In this document: positions 3,271-10,813 of the stretch, in pieces
Position numbering within the stretch: the stretch's first letter is position 1
How the letters are laid out: every line of letters begins with the position of its first letter
Made by a program: the position numbers and the translations under genes
Source of the DNA: a virus
DNA: 10,813 nt
UHGV virus genome: UHGV-0281911
Reading direction: 5' to 3' (one strand)
Notes under the pieces: generated by a model
Told to the model about the DNA's origin: nothing
The model's database searches: none
The model's input: the letters and a program-made list of their open reading frames with translations, nothing else

Positions 3271-3463
3271 AGGTTTCCCCTCTTGCACTCTTTAGTGCAC
3301 AAGCAAATTCATTACGATGGCGGTTGGCGCTATTCATTGCACATTCAACACATGTTCCGTTCAGAACATACCTTTCAGAGAGATGGCCGTGACGGCACCG
3401 CTTTCCTGTGAAATAGCGATTTAACCCGGCTTTTGCGGCCTCCATTCTGGTTACTATCTTCAA
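3251..3463 (-). CDS. Small zinc-ribbon protein (CxxC...CxxC) at the cII-equivalent position
   Basis: 70-aa ORF with CRHGH...CVEC motifs. The candidate TTG start at 3463 is preceded by AAGAGG with an 8-nt spacer; an alternative ATG start lies at 3445. Sits between the tR1-like terminator and the O-like gene. Confidence 0.5.
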   Translation of the reverse strand: MKIVTRMEAAKAGLNRYFTGKRCRHGHLSERYVLNGTCVECAMNSANRHRNEFACALKSARGETYGKQLD

Positions 3464-3541
3464 TTTTTCCGCCTCTTTTTGTTATTGATATTGGATATTT
3501 TGCACAATTGGAAAATTTGATCAACCAGATTTGGTTTTTTA

Positions 3542-3556
3542 TTACCTTTGAGGTAC
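3542..3556. promoter_or_regulatory. Isolated operator-like palindrome TTACCTTTGAGGTAC (one half-site imperfect)
   Basis: Matches the TTACC-N5-GGTAA motif found at the immunity region. Lies immediately promoter-distal to the tR1-like hairpin. Confidence 0.3.
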
Positions 3557-3570
3557 GAATAGATATGAAA

Positions 3571-3590
3571 AGACCGCCGGGTGGCGGTCT
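3571..3590 (-). terminator. tR1-like intrinsic terminator downstream of the cro-like gene
   Basis: Inverted repeat AGACCGCC-GGGT-GGCGGTCT. On the minus-strand transcript the stem is followed by UUUUCAU. Lies 21 nt after the cro-like stop. Confidence 0.45.
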
Positions 3591-3611
3591 ACAGAGGGTT
3601 GTAGCTGGATA

Positions 3612-3842
3612 TCATGAGTAGAAGAAGTATGCCAGTTCTGCTTTTGAGCGCAGCCATTGTCTTGTTTTACAGGCTTTAAAAAGCCCATTCATCAATACTT
3701 TACCTGGCATTTTGCGCTTACCTGTTAAGTGAGTCTGGATATAGTGACTCGTCGTTCCGGCTTCCTGTGCGAAGGCTTCACGCTCATCCGGAGTAAGTGC
3801 AAGCCAGTGCTTTTTGAAATCGAAATGTCCGTTATCGCTCAT
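3612..3842 (-). CDS. Cro-like small HTH regulator
   Basis: 76-aa ORF with an HTH-like segment (LTPDEREAFAQEAGTTSHYIQTHLTGKR). Divergent from the repressor gene across an operator-rich intergenic region and followed by a terminator and replication genes, as cro is in lambda. Confidence 0.7.
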   Translation of the reverse strand: MSDNGHFDFKKHWLALTPDEREAFAQEAGTTSHYIQTHLTGKRKMPGKVLMNGLFKACKTRQWLRSKAELAYFFYS

Positions 3843-3867
3843 AGCTATTGCCTGATATTTATTTCAG

Positions 3868-3941
3868 ATAATAAATATTCACCCATAAGGTAACAAAAAT
3901 CAAGGATAGTTACCTATGAGGTGCATTTACCTGTTGGGTAA
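3868..3941. promoter_or_regulatory. OR-like region: three operator palindromes (3879-3893, 3910-3924, 3927-3941) with a PR-like promoter for cro on the minus strand; a weak PRM-like promoter for the repressor probably lies just downstream (about 3954-3982)
   Basis: Sites TCACCCATAAGGTAA, TTACCTATGAGGTGC, TTACCTGTTGGGTAA. The minus strand reads TTGTTA-17 bp-TATTAT (complement of 3891-3896 and 3868-3873), overlapping the first operator. Plus-strand candidate TTGAAT (3954-3959)-16 bp-TATGAG would give a near-leaderless repressor mRNA. Confidence 0.5.
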
Positions 3942-3996
3942 TATTGCTTTAAATTGAATCATCTACTGATTCATATATGAGGCGATTTTCCAGAAA

Positions 3997-4581
3997 ATGA
4001 AAAGTATCCAGGACGTCCGCAGGCAAAATCTCAACGACTTGATCGACCGTGAATTCAATGGTGTTCAGACGCGGATGGCAGAAAAACTTGGAACTCAGGC
4101 AAATCTGGTAAACCGCTGGGCTCTTGGCAAGAAGGTTATCGGCGACCAGGTTGCGCGAAAAATTGAAGCTGCCGCCAATAAACCCCGTAACTGGCTTGAT
4201 ATCGATCGCTCGCTTTCTCAGGAGGGGTTTCAGCCTGTCGGCCCAAGCGACATTGGTCAGCTGGCGGCTCACAACCTGGAACGCTGGATGAGCGAAAGCC
4301 GCGACCTTTCAACGCAGGGAAAACTACACCGCGCATCCGGCGTCGCCCAGGTGACAATCAGCCGCCTGTTAAACAATGAAGTCAGCGTTTCCATTTCCAC
4401 CCTGGAGAATGTTGCATCCGCATTCGGGCGTCACGGCTATGAATTACTGATTCACCCGCACGACCCTGCGACTATCAACTATGACCGCTCGCGCTACGCA
4501 TTGTTACCCGAAACAGAGAAGGCAAAGATCGAAAGTTACATTGAATTTGTCATCAGCCAGAACGAAAGAAGCAAACAATAA
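3997..4581 (+). CDS. CI-like prophage repressor with two HTH (XRE-like) domains and no recognisable S24 peptidase domain
   Basis: 194 aa. N-terminal HTH QTRMAEKLGTQANLVNRWALGKK and a second HTH-like segment ASGVAQVTISRLLNNEVSVSISTLENVASAFG. I see no Ala-Gly/Ser-Lys LexA-like cleavage module. Divergent from cro-like and followed by a strong terminator. Confidence 0.8.
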   Translation: MKSIQDVRRQNLNDLIDREFNGVQTRMAEKLGTQANLVNRWALGKKVIGDQVARKIEAAANKPRNWLDIDRSLSQEGFQPVGPSDIGQLAAHNLERWMSESRDLSTQGKLHRASGVAQVTISRLLNNEVSVSISTLENVASAFGRHGYELLIHPHDPATINYDRSRYALLPETEKAKIESYIEFVISQNERSKQ

Positions 4582-4601
4582 AACTATAGTTTTCAGTAAG
4601 T

Positions 4602-4628
4602 AAGCCGCCTCATGGCGGCTTTTTTATT
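4602..4628 (+). terminator. Rho-independent terminator after the repressor gene
   Basis: AAGCCGCC-TCAT-GGCGGCTT stem-loop followed by TTTTTATTG, 20 nt after the repressor stop codon. Confidence 0.75.
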
Positions 4629-4638
4629 GCCAACAAGA

Positions 4639-4715
4639 TTACCTTATGGGTAATTTTTTTAACTCATATCTATTGACATCAAACCAAATACGCATAATTA
4701 TTACCTCAACGGTAA
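4639..4715 (+). promoter_or_regulatory. PL-like early promoter module: operator (4639-4653), -35 TTGACA (4673-4678), -10 AATTAT (4696-4701), operator (4701-4715)
   Basis: Perfect -35 hexamer with 17-bp spacing to an A/T-rich -10, flanked by TTACCTTATGGGTAA and TTACCTCAACGGTAA, which are 62 bp apart. Drives the plus-strand recombination operon. Confidence 0.55.
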
Positions 4716-4734
4716 CAGACCGAGGTAACAAGTT

Positions 4735-4887
4735 ATGCAGTGGAAAATCATCAACGGTTGGTACTGCGTTACTGCATGCGGATTCATGAGCTGGAAGTTC
4801 CGCACCTTACAGGAAGGCATTAAGTGGGCTTTCGTCAGCAAAGAAGCTCGCGATGTGGCCAACGATAACGAGATATGGGAGGGCTGA
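4735..4887 (+). CDS. Small hypothetical protein (50 aa), first ORF of the PL-like operon; not in the supplied ORF track
   Basis: ATG at 4735 preceded by GAGGTAACAAGTT. Translates MQWKIINGWYCVTACGFMSWKFRTLQEGIKWAFVSKEARDVANDNEIWEG and ends 2 nt before the next gene. Confidence 0.4.
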   Translation: MQWKIINGWYCVTACGFMSWKFRTLQEGIKWAFVSKEARDVANDNEIWEG

Positions 4888-4889
4888 TA

Positions 4890-5189
4890 ATGAACGTTAA
4901 TCAGCAGAAAAATCTTCAAAAAATCATGCTGGCATTCGACAAGGACTACCGCCTGTCAGAACAGCTATATGACCGACAAGTTGAACTGATTGAGAGCATC
5001 CGACTTCATCAACTGTCCTCAACTTTCGACGTTGTAACAGGCAAAGGCGTTCGTCAGGAAGTGCTGGAGGCTGCTAAAGACAGCCCTGAGTTCGAAGAAC
5101 TGATGGATTCCTACCGGCGCGAGGCAATGGCAATTATAGCGCGCTGGGATCTGGCGGATCAGCTTGATGGGCAGAGGGAAGCGGCATGA
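4890..5189 (+). CDS. Hypothetical phage early protein (99 aa)
   Basis: ATG at 4890 preceded by GGGAGGG. The stop overlaps the start of the exonuclease gene (ATGA at 5186-5189), suggesting translational coupling. Confidence 0.6.
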   Translation: MNVNQQKNLQKIMLAFDKDYRLSEQLYDRQVELIESIRLHQLSSTFDVVTGKGVRQEVLEAAKDSPEFEELMDSYRREAMAIIARWDLADQLDGQREAA

Positions 5190-6007
5190 AACCGGGAATT
5201 TATTTCGACATCAGCAACGAAGACTACCACGCCGGTGACGGCGTGAGTAAGTCGCAACTGGACATGGTTGCCAAGAATCCGGCGCTTCTTAAATGGGTTC
5301 AGGCAGCACCAGAAGACGAAGAGAAAAAGTCTGCACTGGATATGGGAACCGCATTGCACTGTCTGCTTCTGGAGCCTGGAGAATTCGACAAACGCTTCAT
5401 TGTTTCACCGAAGTTCGATCGTCGGACGAAACAAGGTAAAGCTGACGAAGAAGCATTTCTTCGTGATGTAGCGGATATGGGGATTACGGTACTTGATGCC
5501 GAGCAGTGGCGGAAACTGGAGCTGATGCGTGATAGCGCAATGGCTCACCCGGCGGCACGCTGGATGCTGGAAGCACCTGGTTACTGCGAAGCATCAATGT
5601 ACTGGAACGATGAAGAGACGGGTGAGTTGTGCCGAATTCGTCCAGACAAATGGCTGAACGAGCACAACGTGATCGTCGACGTGAAAAAGGTTGCAGATAT
5701 GGACCGTTTTGCACGTCACATCGAGGAATTCCGCTACCACGTGCAGGACGCAATGTACCGCGAAGGCGCAATGAGGATTACTGGTCAGCCGCATGGTTTT
5801 TTCTTTCTTGCCGTGAGCGAAAGCATTGATTGTGGTCGGTATCCGGTACGCGTGTTCGGGCTGGATGCGCCGGATGTCGATGCCGGGCACGCTCTGTTCC
5901 GCCGGGATCTGAATACCTATCACGAATGCCGCATCAGCGATGAATGGGGCGGCGTGGAAATTATTAAACGCCCTGAGTGGGCACGCAAACAGGATATGTA
6001 CGTATGA
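5186..6007 (+). CDS. PD-(D/E)XK exonuclease, RecE (exonuclease VIII) C-terminal-domain-like
   Basis: 273 aa. Candidate catalytic motifs IRPDKW and IVDVKKV. Preceded by GAGGGAAG and translationally coupled to the downstream annealase gene (ATGA at 6004-6007). Family is from memory (DUF3799 / PDDEXK-like). Confidence 0.7.
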   Translation: MKPGIYFDISNEDYHAGDGVSKSQLDMVAKNPALLKWVQAAPEDEEKKSALDMGTALHCLLLEPGEFDKRFIVSPKFDRRTKQGKADEEAFLRDVADMGITVLDAEQWRKLELMRDSAMAHPAARWMLEAPGYCEASMYWNDEETGELCRIRPDKWLNEHNVIVDVKKVADMDRFARHIEEFRYHVQDAMYREGAMRITGQPHGFFFLAVSESIDCGRYPVRVFGLDAPDVDAGHALFRRDLNTYHECRISDEWGGVEIIKRPEWARKQDMYV

Positions 6008-6921
6008 GCAACGAAATTGCAATCACCAATGATGTGTTGGCTATTCGGGGAATCGATGAAGTTACATGGAGCGCTCTGAAAAACAGTATTTACCCTGGGG
6101 CAAAAGATGAATCGGTAATGATGGCAGTCGATTACTGCCGGGCGCGTCAACTCGATCCTCTTCTTAAGCCGGTACACCTGGTACCAATGAGTGTTAAAGA
6201 CTCGAAGAGTGGAAAGAATGAATGGCGCGACGTGGTCATGCCTGGCATTGGACTTTATCGCATTCAGGCCTACCGTTCCGGCGATTACGCAGGCGCTAAT
6301 GAACCTGAGTTCGGTCCAGATGTAACACAAACGCTTTCAGGCGTGGAGGTTACCTTCCCTCAGTGGTGTAAGTACACCGTCAGCAAGCGAATGGCAAGCG
6401 GGGAAATCGTAGAGTTTAGCGCCAAAGAATACTGGATTGAGAACTATGCAACTGGGGGGCGTGACACATCGGCACCAAATGCCATGTGGAAAAAGCGCCC
6501 TTATGCGCAGTTGGCAAAATGCGCAGAGGCACAGGCATTACGTAAAGCATGGCCGGAGATTGGTCAACAAGCCACAGCTGAGGAAATGGAAGGTAAATAT
6601 ATCGACTCACCTGACATTATTGAACGTGACGTAACTCCAAGAAGTCAGGCAAAGCACGGCACAGCATCCAGCATGAACAGTCTGATCAACGCTAAAACAG
6701 TGAAAAAGCCTGATGAGCAAACGCGTAAAGCGGATAGCCGTGATCCAGAAGAAATGCTGATGGCCTTTACCAGCGCAGCGATGAATTACAGCACTGTCTC
6801 CGAACTGGATAAGGCTTACAAATACATTGCACAAAAACTTTCAGATGATGACGAACTGCTGGCAAAAGCCACCGACGTTTACAGCGTTCGTCGGGAAGAA
6901 TTAAACGAAACATCTATGTAA
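6004..6921 (+). CDS. RecT/Red-beta (Bet) family single-strand annealing protein
   Basis: Start ATG 6004 (MSNEIAITND). Segments DYCRARQLDPLLKPVHLVPM, VMPGIGLYRIQ and AMWKKRPYAQLAKCAEAQALRKAWPE parallel lambda Bet as I remember it (QYGLNPWTKEIYAFP, VVGVDGWSRII, GPWQSHPKRMLRHKAMIQCARLAFG). Paired with an upstream exonuclease. Confidence 0.8.
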   Translation: MSNEIAITNDVLAIRGIDEVTWSALKNSIYPGAKDESVMMAVDYCRARQLDPLLKPVHLVPMSVKDSKSGKNEWRDVVMPGIGLYRIQAYRSGDYAGANEPEFGPDVTQTLSGVEVTFPQWCKYTVSKRMASGEIVEFSAKEYWIENYATGGRDTSAPNAMWKKRPYAQLAKCAEAQALRKAWPEIGQQATAEEMEGKYIDSPDIIERDVTPRSQAKHGTASSMNSLINAKTVKKPDEQTRKADSRDPEEMLMAFTSAAMNYSTVSELDKAYKYIAQKLSDDDELLAKATDVYSVRREELNETSM

Positions 6922-6970
6922 CCACCACCGCGGCGCCACGCGCGCCGCACTGCAACCAAGAGAGGTATTT

Positions 6971-7219
6971 ATGAAAGGTGCATTAGGTAAGAAGGAACTC
7001 CTGGCGGTGGTGCCACTGTCATGGAGCACTATCGACCGTATGGAGCGCGCAGGTGAATTTCCTAAACGCTGGTATATCACTGACAAACGCTGCGCATGGA
7101 ACCGTGACGAAGTTGAGCGTTGGCTTGATGAACGTCAGGCAGCAAGCCCGGCAGAGTTCCAGGGTAAAAAGCCTCCTGTTCAGCAACGTGTATATCGTCC
7201 TGTGAGCAACGCTGCATGA
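6971..7219 (+). CDS. AlpA/Xis-family DNA-binding protein (putative excisionase or regulator)
   Basis: 82 aa with SWSTIDRMERAGEFPKRWYITDKRCAWNRDEVERWLDER, typical of AlpA-type excisionase-like winged-helix proteins. Preceded by AGAGAGG. Confidence 0.7.
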   Translation: MKGALGKKELLAVVPLSWSTIDRMERAGEFPKRWYITDKRCAWNRDEVERWLDERQAASPAEFQGKKPPVQQRVYRPVSNAA

Positions 7220-7361
7220 GTGTGCTGCTAAGGCACTGGAGCAAATGGTCAGGATGGTACTTATTCCTGGCCTCTGTTTCAGCATGGCTTTATCTGCTGG
7301 CATTAATTTTCAGAGAGGGTTGGATTAAGTGAGAAAGTTAAGCCGACTTGAAAAATATCAC

Positions 7362-7628
7362 ATGAATAAGGTTTCAATGCGCAGTCCGTCAAAGATTGTC
7401 GCCGTTACTCCTGCGGCGATAGAGATCGAAAAACGCGCGATTGAAAGAGAGAAAAAAGGGCAATTCCGCATTGCCGCTCACCTTTGGCTTCAGTGTATGG
7501 ATGTTGCTTCTGGTGATGTTGAACGTGCAAGGATCGCGGTTCGCAGGGACCAATGTATCACAAAAGGTAACGGCCTTCGCCGTGGCGACTATAGCGGCAT
7601 AGGATGTTGCGGGGTGGTTTATGAATAA
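7362..7628 (+). CDS. Small protein, possibly PerC-family transcriptional regulator; start uncertain (ATG 7362 or 7377; the ORF-track start 7329 is a GTG right after an in-frame stop)
   Basis: The segment EKKGQFRIAAHLWLQCMD...ERARIAVRRDQC follows the G-x-W/F-R-x-A-A-x-x-W-L...RR..C pattern I recall for PerC/Pch proteins. No search was run. Confidence 0.45.
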   Translation: MNKVSMRSPSKIVAVTPAAIEIEKRAIEREKKGQFRIAAHLWLQCMDVASGDVERARIAVRRDQCITKGNGLRRGDYSGIGCCGVVYE

Positions 7629-7656
7629 TCAAAACAATAATGTAAAAGGTAATATC

Positions 7657-8724
7657 ATGAGCAAGGTAGGCGATTATTTCTTTGAATTTCCCGCATCACG
7701 AGGAACGCAGGGAAGCACTGTAATACTTATGATGACAGTACCAGCAAGAGCACTATCGAGAGTATTGGCAACCGACAATACGGGAAGTACCCTTGAACGT
7801 TCTCAACGTGAAATTAATCCAACCAGGGTAAAAAAGTTTTATCAATATTTAGTCAACGCTTACGAGAAAAAGGAACCATTTATTGTTCCACCATTGGTCG
7901 GAAATTGTAACTCAGAAATAGAGTTCCATGAGATTGGAAATACTAATGTCGGTTTAGCTAGATTTCCTATGGATGCAGAAATAAAATTATTTGATGGACA
8001 GCATCGTGCTGCAGGATTAGCTGAGTTCTGCCGTAATTATGGCGAAACAATTATGATTCCTCTTATGCTTACGCATAACCTTCCTTTGAAGGCGCGTCAG
8101 CAGTTCTTTTCTGACATTAATAATAATGTTTCAAAACCATCTGCAGCAATTAATATGGCGTATGACGGACGAAACGATGTTGCCCAAGAAATGGTGTCTT
8201 TCCTGTCGCAACATGACACTTTTGCAGAAGTCACTGACTTCGAGCACAACGTTGTTCCGTCAAAGTCAAACATGTGGGTGAGTTTCAAAGCATTAAGTGA
8301 TTCAACATCAAAATTTTGTATTCATAATGGGAAAAAACTAGAAATTGGTAACATCGAGTCAGTATGGGAATCATGGTTATGTCTTACACAACTAGAAGCA
8401 ATTCGCCATGGTACAAAGCAATCAGAATACAAAAGAGAATATATCCAGTTTCATGCAGTGATGATTAACGCTTTTGGCTATGCTGTTCAGCAAATGATGG
8501 TTAATCACTCAATAAAAGAAATAATTTCAATGATTGAAACATTATGTGCAAATACTGACTTCGCAGAAAGAGAGAATTTTTTCCTAATGGATAATTGGGT
8601 TGGGATCTGCACGAAAGCAAGCCAGGAAAAACTATCAGTTATTGCCAATGTAGCAGCACAGAAAGCGGCAGCAAACAGGCTGATACAAGCCTTTACCAAA
8701 GGAAGTCTGGGAGCAGAACAATGA
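7657..8724 (+). CDS. DGQHR-domain protein (DndB-like, ParB/Srx superfamily); alternative start at ATG 7621
   Basis: Exact DGQHR motif in KLFDGQHRAAGLAEF, N-terminal YFFEFPASRGTQG and a downstream FFSDINNN motif. ATG 7657 is preceded by AAAAGG with a 7-nt spacer. The stop overlaps the methyltransferase start (ATGA at 8721-8724). The gene is markedly AT-rich. Confidence 0.8.
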   Translation: MSKVGDYFFEFPASRGTQGSTVILMMTVPARALSRVLATDNTGSTLERSQREINPTRVKKFYQYLVNAYEKKEPFIVPPLVGNCNSEIEFHEIGNTNVGLARFPMDAEIKLFDGQHRAAGLAEFCRNYGETIMIPLMLTHNLPLKARQQFFSDINNNVSKPSAAINMAYDGRNDVAQEMVSFLSQHDTFAEVTDFEHNVVPSKSNMWVSFKALSDSTSKFCIHNGKKLEIGNIESVWESWLCLTQLEAIRHGTKQSEYKREYIQFHAVMINAFGYAVQQMMVNHSIKEIISMIETLCANTDFAERENFFLMDNWVGICTKASQEKLSVIANVAAQKAAANRLIQAFTKGSLGAEQ

Positions 8725-9368
8725 AAAAATACACGCTAATCTATGCAGATCCACCCTGGGTATACCGGGACAAAGCCGCAGATGGTAATCGCGGTGCCGG
8801 TTTTAAATATCCGGTTATGAGTGTGCTGGATATCTGCCGCCTTCCTGTGTGGGATTTGGCCGATGAAAACTGTCTGTTGGCCATGTGGTGGGTGCCAACA
8901 CAACCACTCGAAGCACTAAAAGTTGTTGAAGCCTGGGGATTTCGTCTGATGACCATGAAGGGCTTCACGTGGATAAAATGTGGTAGTCGACAACCAGATA
9001 AACTGGTTATGGGGATGGGACACATGACTCGCGCCAACAGTGAAGATTGCCTGTTTGCGGTAAAGGGAAAACTACCTCCGCGCATTAATGCAGGTATCGT
9101 TCAGTCATTTACCGCACCGCGGCTTGAGCATTCAAGAAAACCAGATGTCGTTCGTGAAAAACTTGTGCAATTGTTAGGCGATGTTTCTCGCATTGAACTG
9201 TTCGCCCGCCAAACGTCTCATGGCTTCGATGTTTGGGGTAATCAGTGCGAAGACCCAGCAGTGCAACTACACCCTGGATACGCGTTGTATATTGCCGGAT
9301 TAACAAATGCATTCAGCAATGCTCCGCTGTCACCAACAGACAACCAGGGGCGGGAGCGTGCAGCATGA
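8721..9368 (+). CDS. MT-A70 family N6-adenine DNA methyltransferase
   Basis: Catalytic DPPW motif near the N-terminus (MKKYTLIYADPPWVY). 215 aa. Translationally coupled to both the upstream DGQHR gene and a downstream small ORF. Confidence 0.85.
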   Translation: MKKYTLIYADPPWVYRDKAADGNRGAGFKYPVMSVLDICRLPVWDLADENCLLAMWWVPTQPLEALKVVEAWGFRLMTMKGFTWIKCGSRQPDKLVMGMGHMTRANSEDCLFAVKGKLPPRINAGIVQSFTAPRLEHSRKPDVVREKLVQLLGDVSRIELFARQTSHGFDVWGNQCEDPAVQLHPGYALYIAGLTNAFSNAPLSPTDNQGRERAA

Positions 9369-9559
9369 ACAGGGCATCACCAGCAGATTTAAGGAAATGC
9401 CTTGAAACTGCAAACATGCTTGCACACAGCGGGATCAGGTTTGTTCCAATTCCCGCTGTCACTGATGCTGAATTTGCAACACTGTCAGCAATATTCACAG
9501 ATAAAATTGAATCACTGGCAGCAGAAGCCGAGATGGAAGAAAATCAGCAGAATAATTAA
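9365..9559 (+). CDS. Small hypothetical protein (64 aa) with acidic C-terminus, last gene of the cargo operon
   Basis: ATG 9365 overlaps the methyltransferase stop (ATGA) and is preceded by GGGAG. Ends 3 nt before the convergent integrase stop codon. Confidence 0.5.
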   Translation: MNRASPADLRKCLETANMLAHSGIRFVPIPAVTDAEFATLSAIFTDKIESLAAEAEMEENQQNN

Positions 9560-9562
9560 ACG

Positions 9563-10813
9563 TTATTCCCCCGGCATCCACTTCTCAAACTTCGACGGGG
9601 AGAACGGAATCAGATCCGTATGCTCCCCGTCAATCCAGGAATCAATCATATCGGCCCACTGCTGCAACATGTAGGCGCGCTGTCTGGCGTATTCCGCTTT
9701 GTTATATACGGCGCGCACACCTTTCTGCTCATGTGCCAGAGCCTTTTCAATCCAGTCTGAAGGATAACCAGCCTCATGCAACAATGTACTGGCTGTACGG
9801 CGCATATCGTGTACGGTGAAGCCCTGAATATGCTCACCATCTTCATTTATTATTTTCACCGTTCTGTCGATCAGAGAGTTCAGCGCGGCATTAGATAATG
9901 GCTTCCGGAAATTGTAACGACCAGGAACCAGATATTCACTTCCACCAGCGCACATCTGCAATCCGACCAATATATCCTGAGCCTGTTTAGGCAGGTAAAT
10001 AACGTGCGCCCGGCTTCCCTTCATGCGGTCTGAAGGAATGGTCCATGTCCATTTTTTAAAATCTATTTCATCCCACGTTGCGTTGGTGAATTCGCCTTTA
10101 CGAACCATAGTGATAAGCACCAGCTTTAAAGCCATTTTCATAGTGCCCATAGCACCAATGGCATCCAGCGTGCGGAAGAACAGGCCAATTTCTTCTGGTG
10201 TCAGTGTTCGCTCTCTTGGTTTAAATATGGCGATAGACGAAGGTTTAATGTCAGCCGCAGGATTAAACAAACCATGACCACGGTCATTGGCGTGACGGTA
10301 TACGCTACTGATGATCTCCCTGGCCTGCACTGCTGTTGCCCGGCCACCGCGTTCGACAATCCGGTCACACAAATCACGAACCATCGATGTGGTAATTTCA
10401 GCCATCATTTTATTGCCAAGAACCGGAAGTATGTCACGGTCGATCACCGCCTGTTTCATTGCGCGGGTACTGTCAGCCAGGATGACGTGTTTCATATAAC
10501 TGTCGGTATGTACCGCAAACGTCTCGGCACCACGAATCTTTTTGATACCGTCACGTTTAGCCGCAGCCGGTGACTGGCCTGCTTTAAGCAGCTTCTTTGC
10601 AGCAATCAGTTCTTCTCGCGCTTCTGCCAGGCTGATACCGTCACGCCCATACTGCCCGATTACCAGCGTTTCGCGGCGACCGTTGATACGGTAGTCGTAG
10701 CGAAACGAGACCGTGCCTGACGTAAGCACAGCTACATACAGCCCGTCACGATCGGAGACCTTGTACAGTTTGTCCTGCGGCTTGAGGTTTTTTAATTTTG
10801 TATCGGTAAGCAC
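9563..10813 (-). CDS. int: Tyrosine site-specific integrase (P4/CP4-57-like, N-terminal arm-binding domain); 5' end at or just beyond the window edge
   Basis: N-terminus LTDTKLKNLKPQDKLYKVSDRDGLYVAVL is typical of this integrase class. C-terminal HDMRRT box and downstream Tyr (AVYNKAEY). The first in-window codon is GTG, so 1-3 codons may be missing. Confidence 0.9.
   Translation of the reverse strand: MLTDTKLKNLKPQDKLYKVSDRDGLYVAVLTSGTVSFRYDYRINGRRETLVIGQYGRDGISLAEAREELIAAKKLLKAGQSPAAAKRDGIKKIRGAETFAVHTDSYMKHVILADSTRAMKQAVIDRDILPVLGNKMMAEITTSMVRDLCDRIVERGGRATAVQAREIISSVYRHANDRGHGLFNPAADIKPSSIAIFKPRERTLTPEEIGLFFRTLDAIGAMGTMKMALKLVLITMVRKGEFTNATWDEIDFKKWTWTIPSDRMKGSRAHVIYLPKQAQDILVGLQMCAGGSEYLVPGRYNFRKPLSNAALNSLIDRTVKIINEDGEHIQGFTVHDMRRTASTLLHEAGYPSDWIEKALAHEQKGVRAVYNKAEYARQRAYMLQQWADMIDSWIDGEHTDLIPFSPSKFEKWMPGE

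Follow-up and report, generated by a model that had tools for sequence, protein, structure and literature searches.

A DGQHR gene inserted at the perC/methylase junction of a Uetakevirus prophage and its family's preferential position upstream of orphan adenine methylase genes

Introduction

The window analyzed here (the whole 10,813-nt stretch of virus genome UHGV-0281911) carries, between a perC-family activator gene and a gene for an MT-A70-family DNA N6-adenine methyltransferase, a gene encoding a DGQHR-domain protein, and raises the question of whether a gene that looks recently acquired can be functionally linked to the methylase gene that follows it. A preliminary description of the locus had proposed both, recent acquisition from the AT-richness of the gene and functional linkage from the overlap of its stop codon with the methylase start. 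By comparing DGQHR genes and their surroundings in phages and prophages, we find that this family is preferentially located immediately upstream of orphan DNA adenine methylase genes, which belong to four Pfam families. A dip in base composition is nothing unusual for mosaic phage cargo, and the DGQHR gene is already annotated in databases.

Results

Methylase genes downstream of DGQHR genes

The gene downstream of the DGQHR gene was located in 118 loci (28 from species-representative genomes, 80 IMG/VR contigs, plus phage and genome records) and assigned to a Pfam family. The directly following gene was an MT-A70 methylase (PF05063) in loci of the window type, in SPN1S, in Klebsiella L008, in Cronobacter L010 and in L054, L018, L021, L108 and L118; a Dam methylase (PF05869) in L006, L007 and L050, in Rheinheimera L031 and, weakly, in L033; a D12-class methylase (PF02086) in the Klebsiella phages L114-L117 and in Rheinheimera L037 and L038; and an N6_N4 methylase (PF01555) in L078. 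These directly following methylase genes overlap the DGQHR gene by 4 nt everywhere except at three distant loci, L037 and L038 (+10) and L033 (+9). Two other groups have one small gene in between, encoding either a 154-aa protein without Pfam match or a 179-aa helix-turn-helix (HTH) protein, and the methylase gene that comes after it again starts with a 4-nt overlap, the identical slot being occupied by MT-A70, Dam (PF05869) or N6_N4 in similar loci (L053, L056, L058). Methylase families differ even between DGQHR proteins grouped at ≥90% identity.

Of the 39 representative loci, 21 had a methylase gene at position +1 or +2, in every case downstream of the DGQHR gene and on its strand. A tblastn search of the ±3.5-kb flanks, seeded from the downstream set for positions outside +1/+2, found only two methylases elsewhere, i.e. 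21 at +1/+2 versus 2 among 146 other open reading frames (ORFs; Fisher p = 9e-11, a value that overstates independence since the loci share descent, with an estimated 10-12 or so independent pairings). A Pfam scan of these 146 other flanking ORFs, which covered ORFs of at least 150 aa, detected no methylase family among the families with at least two ORF matches. The link is asymmetric in that the methylases mostly occur without a DGQHR gene, whereas a DGQHR gene is more often than not placed ahead of a methylase gene.

The three-gene variants were found in L053, L056 and L058 (3501-6156) and in L059 (3501-5633). The 179-aa HTH protein gave a weak, sub-threshold match to GcrA (E = 6e-4). GcrA is a methylation-dependent transcription factor, and one may speculate that the small HTH protein would read the methylation mark.

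Among more distant homologues, that of Vibrio phage Va_PF430-3_p42 (33% identity; L119, 2992-6187) stands in the order DGQHR-methylase-small gene-integrase, with a longer DGQHR protein (540 aa) and a DNA methyltransferase of 500 aa. In Pseudoalteromonas phage KB12-38 (L120), a DndB-like gene has a C5-methylase/PAPS-reductase pair on one side and another reductase-like gene on the other, and in homologues of about 38% identity from Buttiauxella and Pseudescherichia (L023-L025 and L027, about 3501-5600) a PsiA gene comes next. The ORFs flanking the 39 representative loci also included SSB (3 members), antirestriction PF03230 (3) and HTH_ParB (5) proteins, counted over all loci together; if those ORFs belong to the PsiA group, its context would resemble the leading, anti-defense region of conjugative plasmids. 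The family is common in Enterobacterales prophages. In a survey of 5426 complete E. coli genomes, about 320 carried the DGQHR gene, and the order in lambdoid E. coli prophages is exo-DUF1317-DGQHR-gap-TraR.

A foreign segment exactly at the perC/methylase junction

The window matches, at 100% identity, a prophage that is integrated adjacent to guaA in E. coli APEC E19035 (annotation NZ_CP126926). Escherichia phage phiV10 (Uetakevirus, epsilon15-like) shares 97.8-99.4% nucleotide identity with it in the early-left operon and integrase, on both flanks of the insert, and this collinear, near-identical arrangement identifies the window as part of a Uetakevirus (phiV10/epsilon15-like) prophage. In phiV10, the perC stop and the methylase start overlap by 8 nt, GGTTTATGACTAAGAAATACAC. 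Homology between the window and phiV10 ends after GGTTTATGA (7624) and restarts at AAATACAC, directly past a second ATGA (8721-8724). The foreign segment, 7625-8724 (1.1 kb), consists of only the DGQHR ORF and a 32-nt leader and sits exactly at the perC/methylase junction.

The ATG at 7621 corresponds to the methylase start of phiV10; in the window it lies in the DGQHR frame, and no stop codon intervenes (ORF 7621-8724). The start conserved in the family is 7657, where the phrog_7901 profile begins and homologues start with MSKVG. Translation from 7621, coupled to perC, could add a 12-residue N-terminal extension (MNNQNNNVKGNI) that is absent from other family members. The leader resembles, weakly only, the 3' end of a DUF1317 gene, and such a gene occupies the position of the leader in the SPN1S, Klebsiella and lambdoid loci; the leader may be a remnant of it.

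At the other end, the DGQHR stop overlaps the methylase start as had been reported (...GAACAATGAAAAAA...; Table 1), and a GGGAG Shine-Dalgarno-like motif lies within the DGQHR 3' end about 9 nt upstream of the ATGA. With a stop/start overlap and a Shine-Dalgarno-like motif in the upstream gene, the two genes have the sequence features of a translationally coupled pair. The comparison with phiV10 shows that the ATG which starts the methylase there begins the DGQHR frame in the window, and that the new ATGA would re-couple the methylase. As an argument for functional linkage, however, the overlap is weak, because the same 4-nt overlap is present at 4 of the 8 junctions of the window operon and because the phiV10 methylase start overlaps perC without any DGQHR gene. 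Linkage itself is supported by other data, i.e. the DGQHR-then-methylase order kept with four unrelated methylase families, from which the DGQHR gene and the methylase probably work together.

A simple consensus scan of 6900-9700 returned no sigma-70-like promoter site (5.3 expected) and no terminator-like site on the + strand. No promoter-like site lies within 700 nt upstream, and the operon start is about 3 kb away. By these scans, the segment is devoid of signals of its own, would ride on transcription of the early-left (recombination/excision) operon and is not an autonomous moron.

Two further observations concern the junctions. An imperfect 25-nt direct repeat (7550-7574 and 8645-8669, 72% identity) has a spacing of 1095 nt, close to the length of the insert, each copy lying about 70-75 nt upstream of one ATGA junction; it could be a microhomology trace, but we judged it to be probably due to chance. 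A database protein of 297 aa, P0124, combines a PerC and an MT-A70 Pfam domain and shares 97% identity with the methylase of the window. It probably arose from a frameshift or from gene calling that fused the two genes over their 8-nt overlap in a prophage lacking the DGQHR gene.

Base composition and codon usage

The preliminary description had counted GC by hand in three 60-nt lines, and the counts were exact (0.350 for 7861-7920, 0.317 for 8101-8160 and 0.483 for 8761-8820). The AT-richness holds for the DGQHR gene as a whole, with a GC content of 0.390 versus 0.487 for the rest of the window, and GC at third codon positions (GC3) is 0.319 versus 0.499. Sliding-window GC and codon usage, which had been put forward as the means to check the proposal, were computed and displayed both the dip and the deviation. 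The lowest-GC stretch of 1068 nt in the 10.8 kb begins at 7618. Resampling of 354 codons from the other 17 genes gave a GC3 of 0.499 ± 0.025 with a minimum of 0.401 in 20,000 draws (z = -7.2), and a GC3 of 0.505 would be expected for the DGQHR gene from its own amino acids and the codon preferences of its neighbors. Its synonymous codon usage also differed from that of the pooled neighbors (chi2/df 2.26, p = 7e-6), p exceeding 0.05 for 15 of the 17 control genes. The compositional deviation of the DGQHR gene is confirmed to be far beyond chance. At 39% GC over 1.1 kb, the segment may also be a candidate target of the xenogeneic silencing that the preliminary description had raised, here by H-NS.

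This composition is not intrinsic to the family: copies from Salmonella, Klebsiella and Cronobacter have a GC3 of 0.58-0.65, and that of lambdoid E. coli prophages has 0.39. GC change points were located at 7618, which matches the phiV10 homology breakpoint at 7625, and at about 8597. The low-GC tract stops at the latter, before the stop codon, and the last 125 nt or so of the gene have a normal, backbone-like GC content.

Acquisition, age and mosaicism

The perC-methylase backbone was present in 539 of the 5426 complete E. coli genomes, with the DGQHR gene between perC and the methylase gene in 21 of the 539. The comparison with prophages lacking the DGQHR gene, which the preliminary description had called for, shows in this way that about 96% of related prophages have the methylase gene and no DGQHR gene. 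Among phage records carrying the perC-methylase backbone, none has the DGQHR gene. Its deviating GC, GC3 and codon usage, together with its patchy presence in otherwise identical backbones, are those of a horizontally acquired gene.

In viral contigs that do carry it, the DGQHR gene diverges from that of the window by 0.4-0.8%, the methylase gene by 1.9-2.5% and the integrase gene by 1.4-2.3%. Pooled over six loci, there were 38 mismatches in 6576 nt of the DGQHR gene versus 86 in 3864 nt of the adjacent backbone genes (p = 3e-13), i.e. about four times less divergence. The backbone of phiV10, which has no DGQHR gene, is as near to the window as are the backbones of DGQHR-positive loci (perC is 99.4% identical to phiV10 and 96.6-99.7% identical to the DGQHR-positive loci L040-L045). 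The recent acquisition proposed earlier is supported both by the presence in only 21 of 539 backbones and by the divergence being about fourfold lower than that of the flanks, and these two facts indicate a cassette that entered after the backbones had diversified and whose presence varies within a phage population that recombines. The donor was not found, the nearest relatives elsewhere having only 77-78% protein identity. We also considered phiV10 as a simple ATGA-to-ATGA deletion derivative of the window and rejected it: such a deletion predicts a methylase starting with MKKY... and that of phiV10 starts with MTKKY...

The 3' quarter of the DGQHR gene (the last 250 nt or so; Table 1) is 79-92% identical to the E. 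coli lambdoid prophage allele (L004) versus about 51-59% to the Uetakevirus alleles in the three final steps of the sliding comparison, and the 5' part is nearer to the Uetakevirus alleles. Judged from these alignments, the DGQHR allele is itself recombinant. The order perC-DUF1317-DGQHR-methylase is found in Salmonella phage SPN1S and in Klebsiella and Citrobacter prophages of the same genus, with 78% (PerC), 76% (DGQHR) and 78% (methylase) identity to the window. It is possible that the genus has long had this association and that the E. coli lineage lost it and later regained it.

The DGQHR protein

The DGQHR protein scores 192.4 bits against TIGR03187 (DGQHR domain; cut-off 58.85) and 158.3 bits against Pfam DndB (PF14072; gathering threshold 29.1) over model positions 1-312 of 338, and matches the PADLOC DndB model at 2.3e-37. 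It falls short of the equivalog model of DndB proper (TIGR03233; 110 bits, cut-off 328), and neither the window nor the matching 26-kb region of the genome has a dndCDE gene (PAPS-reductase-like, ABC ATPase, DndE). DndB is its sole Pfam match at E ≤ 0.01, the canonical ParB-CTPase PF02195 not being matched. PADLOC reported only generic DndB and MTase_II matches and no named defense system, and PHROGs annotates phrog_7901 as 'unknown function'.

All 20 aligned homologues have the motif F112-D-G-Q-H-R117 unchanged, several other motifs are likewise invariant, and because of this invariance the NTP pocket is probably functional. An AlphaFold model (pLDDT 78) displays an alpha/beta domain at the N-terminus, with helices making up the C-terminal half. 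The model has a ParB/Srx superfamily fold and matches ParB-like PadC, sulfiredoxin, KorB and a serine kinase; its viral structure matches are DndB-like, GmrSD-N, AIPR and ParB-like proteins, and BrxU is also among the structure matches. Searches of all PDB chains by sequence, with the protein or a 20-member profile, gave no match, and Foldseek against the PDB gave no significant one. We infer that the DGQHR protein would be a ParB/Srx-fold NTPase. The C-terminal half contains a candidate HEPN motif, K259-[R/K]260-x5-H266, in which K259 and H266 are invariant and position 260 is R or K, and no HEPN Pfam match was obtained. The phage anti-Dnd protein JSS1_004 was set aside, since it is a kinase/shutoff protein and no relative of DndB.

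Operon layout and neighboring genes

The + strand operon comprises, in order, two small ORFs, a PD-(D/E)XK nuclease, RecT, an AlpA-like excisionase, PerC, the DGQHR protein, the MT-A70 methylase and DUF1382, followed by a P4-type integrase gene on the opposite strand (Table 1). The perC start is placed at 7377 by PGAP and at 7329 in the longest ORF, with the TAA stop at 7626-7628. The methylase gene is 97.8% identical to that of phiV10 at the nucleotide level; its product scores 78.9 bits against MT-A70 (threshold 23.9) and carries the DPPW catalytic motif near its N-terminus, MKKYTLIYADPPW.

Table 1. Coordinates of the features at and around the DGQHR gene in the window.
Feature	Position	Strand	Basis
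perC-family activator gene, backbone	7377..7628	+	Pfam PerC 6e-07; annotated in the identical E. coli record
Left junction, ATGA	7621..7624	+	Alignment to phiV10
AT-rich 32-nt leader of the inserted segment	7625..7656	+	AAAGG Shine-Dalgarno-like motif 8 nt before ATG 7657
DGQHR-domain protein gene, 355 aa, phrog_7901	7657..8724	+	Predicted ParB/Srx-like N-terminal domain and helical C-terminal domain
F-D-G-Q-H-R codons, residues 112-117, putative NTP-pocket motif	7990..8007	+	Invariant in 20/20 aligned homologues
Mosaic 3' part of the DGQHR gene	8440..8720	+	Sliding identity, protein alignment, GC change point 8597
Right junction, ATGA	8721..8724	+	Methylase ATG 8721-8723, DGQHR TGA 8722-8724
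MT-A70-family DNA N6-adenine methyltransferase gene, 215 aa, backbone	8721..9368	+	Pfam MT-A70 5.7e-22; PADLOC MTase_II 2e-76
DUF1382 gene, last in operon	9365..9559	+	Pfam DUF1382 1.4e-30; 4-nt overlap with methylase stop
P4-type tyrosine integrase gene	9563..10813	-	Pfam Phage_integrase and Arm-DNA-bind_3

Other parts of the window also vary. The DUF1382 gene has a low GC3 (0.338) and a deviant codon usage (p = 0.003), and a Ser/Thr phosphatase gene replaces it in some related prophages (H21-H29), so that the slot 3' of the methylase gene is variable as well. The recombination module is a further mosaic point, phiV10 having a single fused RecE/RecT gene of 1761 nt (L001, 1862-3622) and the window a DUF3799 PD-(D/E)XK nuclease gene and a recT gene that are separate and overlap by 4 nt (5186-6921). 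Two other GC dips (0.38-0.42) at 3301-4050 and 4501-4800 flank an HTH repressor-like gene (3997-4581) in a divergent immunity/regulatory region.

Discussion

The reading that we tentatively favor is that the DGQHR protein acts as a DpdB-like helper of phage genome methylation. A ParB/Srx-fold NTPase with an invariant DGQHR pocket would bind DNA and, during lytic growth, assist the co-expressed methylase in marking phage DNA, possibly by loading onto DNA or sliding along it in an NTP-dependent manner or by opening the DNA locally, and the outcome would be a faster or more complete protective methylation against host restriction. Its action would pass via DNA and involve no fixed protein-protein contact, as that of DpdB for DpdA: DpdB, a DGQQR ATPase, is needed for DpdA to insert preQ0 into DNA, and the two form no stable complex (PMC10164549). 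A DNA-mediated action would explain both the freely exchangeable methylase partner and a methylase that presumably also works alone.

Several points weigh against a helper of this kind. About half of the sampled lineages, including some 300 E. coli lambdoid prophages, have no methylase gene nearby, and the methylase is without a DGQHR gene in about 96% of the related E. coli prophages. Near-identical DGQHR proteins pair with different methylase families, with no sign of co-evolution. In a Rosetta-stone search, the top 120 MT-A70 homologues were all stand-alone, with no ParB-like fusion (the phrog_359 profile has an extension of 118 positions at its N-terminus), and the literature searched holds no experiment on phrog_7901 or the DGQHR phage family. 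The limits given above for the association, i.e. the seeding of the methylase search, the size range of the Pfam control and the shared descent of the loci, belong on the same side.

A rather doubtful alternative is that the gene is independent cargo with its own role in phage-host or phage-phage conflict (defense or anti-defense, e.g. NTP-regulated nicking of rival DNA), unrelated to the methylase, and that its adjacency reflects a tolerated insertion hot spot upstream of methylase genes in the exo/bet-to-int region. Phage mosaic joints typically lie at gene boundaries, which agrees with such an insertion, and the DGQHR gene alone and the methylase gene alone each occur in hundreds of genomes. 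The partner family is unconserved even between closely related DGQHR proteins, and distant homologues are neighbored by PsiA, and possibly also SSB and antirestriction, genes instead of a methylase gene. For ParB-like domains of mobile elements, a role as NTP-regulated DNases has moreover been proposed (PMC5512222). A hot spot predicts, however, neither the strict order, the methylase gene never being upstream, nor the recurrence of the arrangement across different phage backbones and in the Rheinheimera, Vibrio and Arsukibacterium homologues of 31-39% identity; the 21 methylases at +1/+2 versus 2 elsewhere speak against it as well, and the lack of an own promoter in our crude scan argues against a defense gene expressed in the lysogen.

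It is unlikely that the protein is instead a DndB-like governor, i.e. an NTP-modulated DNA-binding repressor limiting expression or activity of the downstream methylase and thereby avoiding toxic or untimely over-methylation. DndB is its best sequence relative by both Pfam and PADLOC, the gene order is that of dndB-dndCDE with the regulator first, and DndB represses its own operon, its loss raising the phosphorothioation level (PMC4507180); a later study cited in PMC10164549 describes this autoregulation as ATP-modulated. The protein nevertheless fails the DndB equivalog model, DndB acts at a promoter directly upstream of itself and none is in reach here, and the methylase is tolerated without the DGQHR gene in most related prophages. 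A minimal restriction-modification-like or methylation-sensing pair, in which the DGQHR protein (a ParB-like nuclease/NTPase with a possible HEPN-like C-terminal domain) would be the effector against unmethylated DNA or RNA and the methylase would protect self DNA, has in its favor the effector-then-methylase order with overlapping genes seen in many restriction-modification operons, the GmrSD-N, AIPR and BrxU structure matches, the conserved candidate K259-[R/K]260-x5-H266 motif and the description of DndB as a fusion of ParB-like and HEPN domains akin to the restriction-modification-linked AbiU1/AIPR/COG1479 families (PMC3632139), but is very improbable given near-identical DGQHR proteins with methylases of different families and presumably different specificities, stable carriage in about 300 E. 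coli genomes that have no linked methylase, the replacement of the R of the candidate HEPN motif by K in several members and the absence of a nuclease domain by Pfam.

Starting from the DNA-mediated helper, we would venture, with some hesitation, a generalization: DGQHR/DndB-like phage proteins might be enzyme-agnostic, NTP-driven helpers or governors able to pair with any adenine methylase, be it MT-A70, Dam, D12 or N6_N4, forming a so far unrecognized epigenetic module of two or three genes (DGQHR and methylase, with or without a small HTH protein between them) in early operons of temperate phages. In the literature on DGQHR or DndB-like proteins with phage methylases, we did not find the DGQHR-(small gene)-methylase synteny with four interchangeable families described. 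If true, the module would extend the principle of DndB-DndCDE and DpdB-DpdA to ordinary methylation and would offer mobile elements a general means to control or boost protective DNA marking, with a bearing on phage host range, restriction evasion and the interpretation of prophage methylomes. Near-identical prophages with and without the DGQHR gene constitute a clean natural experiment.

Comparison with known systems

As an AT-rich, patchy extra gene between two backbone genes of a temperate phage, the segment resembles phage morons and mosaic cargo; a classical moron has, however, its own promoter and terminator, whereas the window segment has neither by consensus scan and preserves both translational overlaps. 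Prophages often encode a ParB-CTPase fold fused to a DNA methylase (PMC12704722), and PMC5512222 cites a fusion of ParB and methylase that has nicking activity. Such fusions in phages, prophages and plasmids (e.g. B. cereus Bce_0392; ParB-CTPase-N6N4 methyltransferase) likewise unite a ParB-superfamily domain and an orphan DNA adenine methylase on mobile elements, but in the window the genes are separate, the ParB-like part is of the DndB/DGQHR branch with no PF02195 match, and no fusion was found among the 120 closest MT-A70 homologues of the methylase. With DndB, the protein shares the DGQHR motif, the Pfam and PADLOC DndB models over about 300 residues, the ParB/Srx-like fold and the position as first gene before one or more DNA-modification enzyme genes; it differs by its low equivalog score, by the absence of dndC, dndD and dndE, and by having an N6-adenine methylase as partner in a phage early operon without own promoter. 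DpdB, the ParB-like ATPase of the Dpd 7-deazaguanine system, is likened to it by motif and pairing, although its motif is DGQQR instead of DGQHR and its partner is a transglycosylase instead of a methyltransferase, and the window methylase exists, and presumably works, alone. If the DGQHR protein does act with orphan methylases, it would be the third case, after DndB and DpdB, of a ParB-like NTPase paired with a DNA-modifying enzyme.

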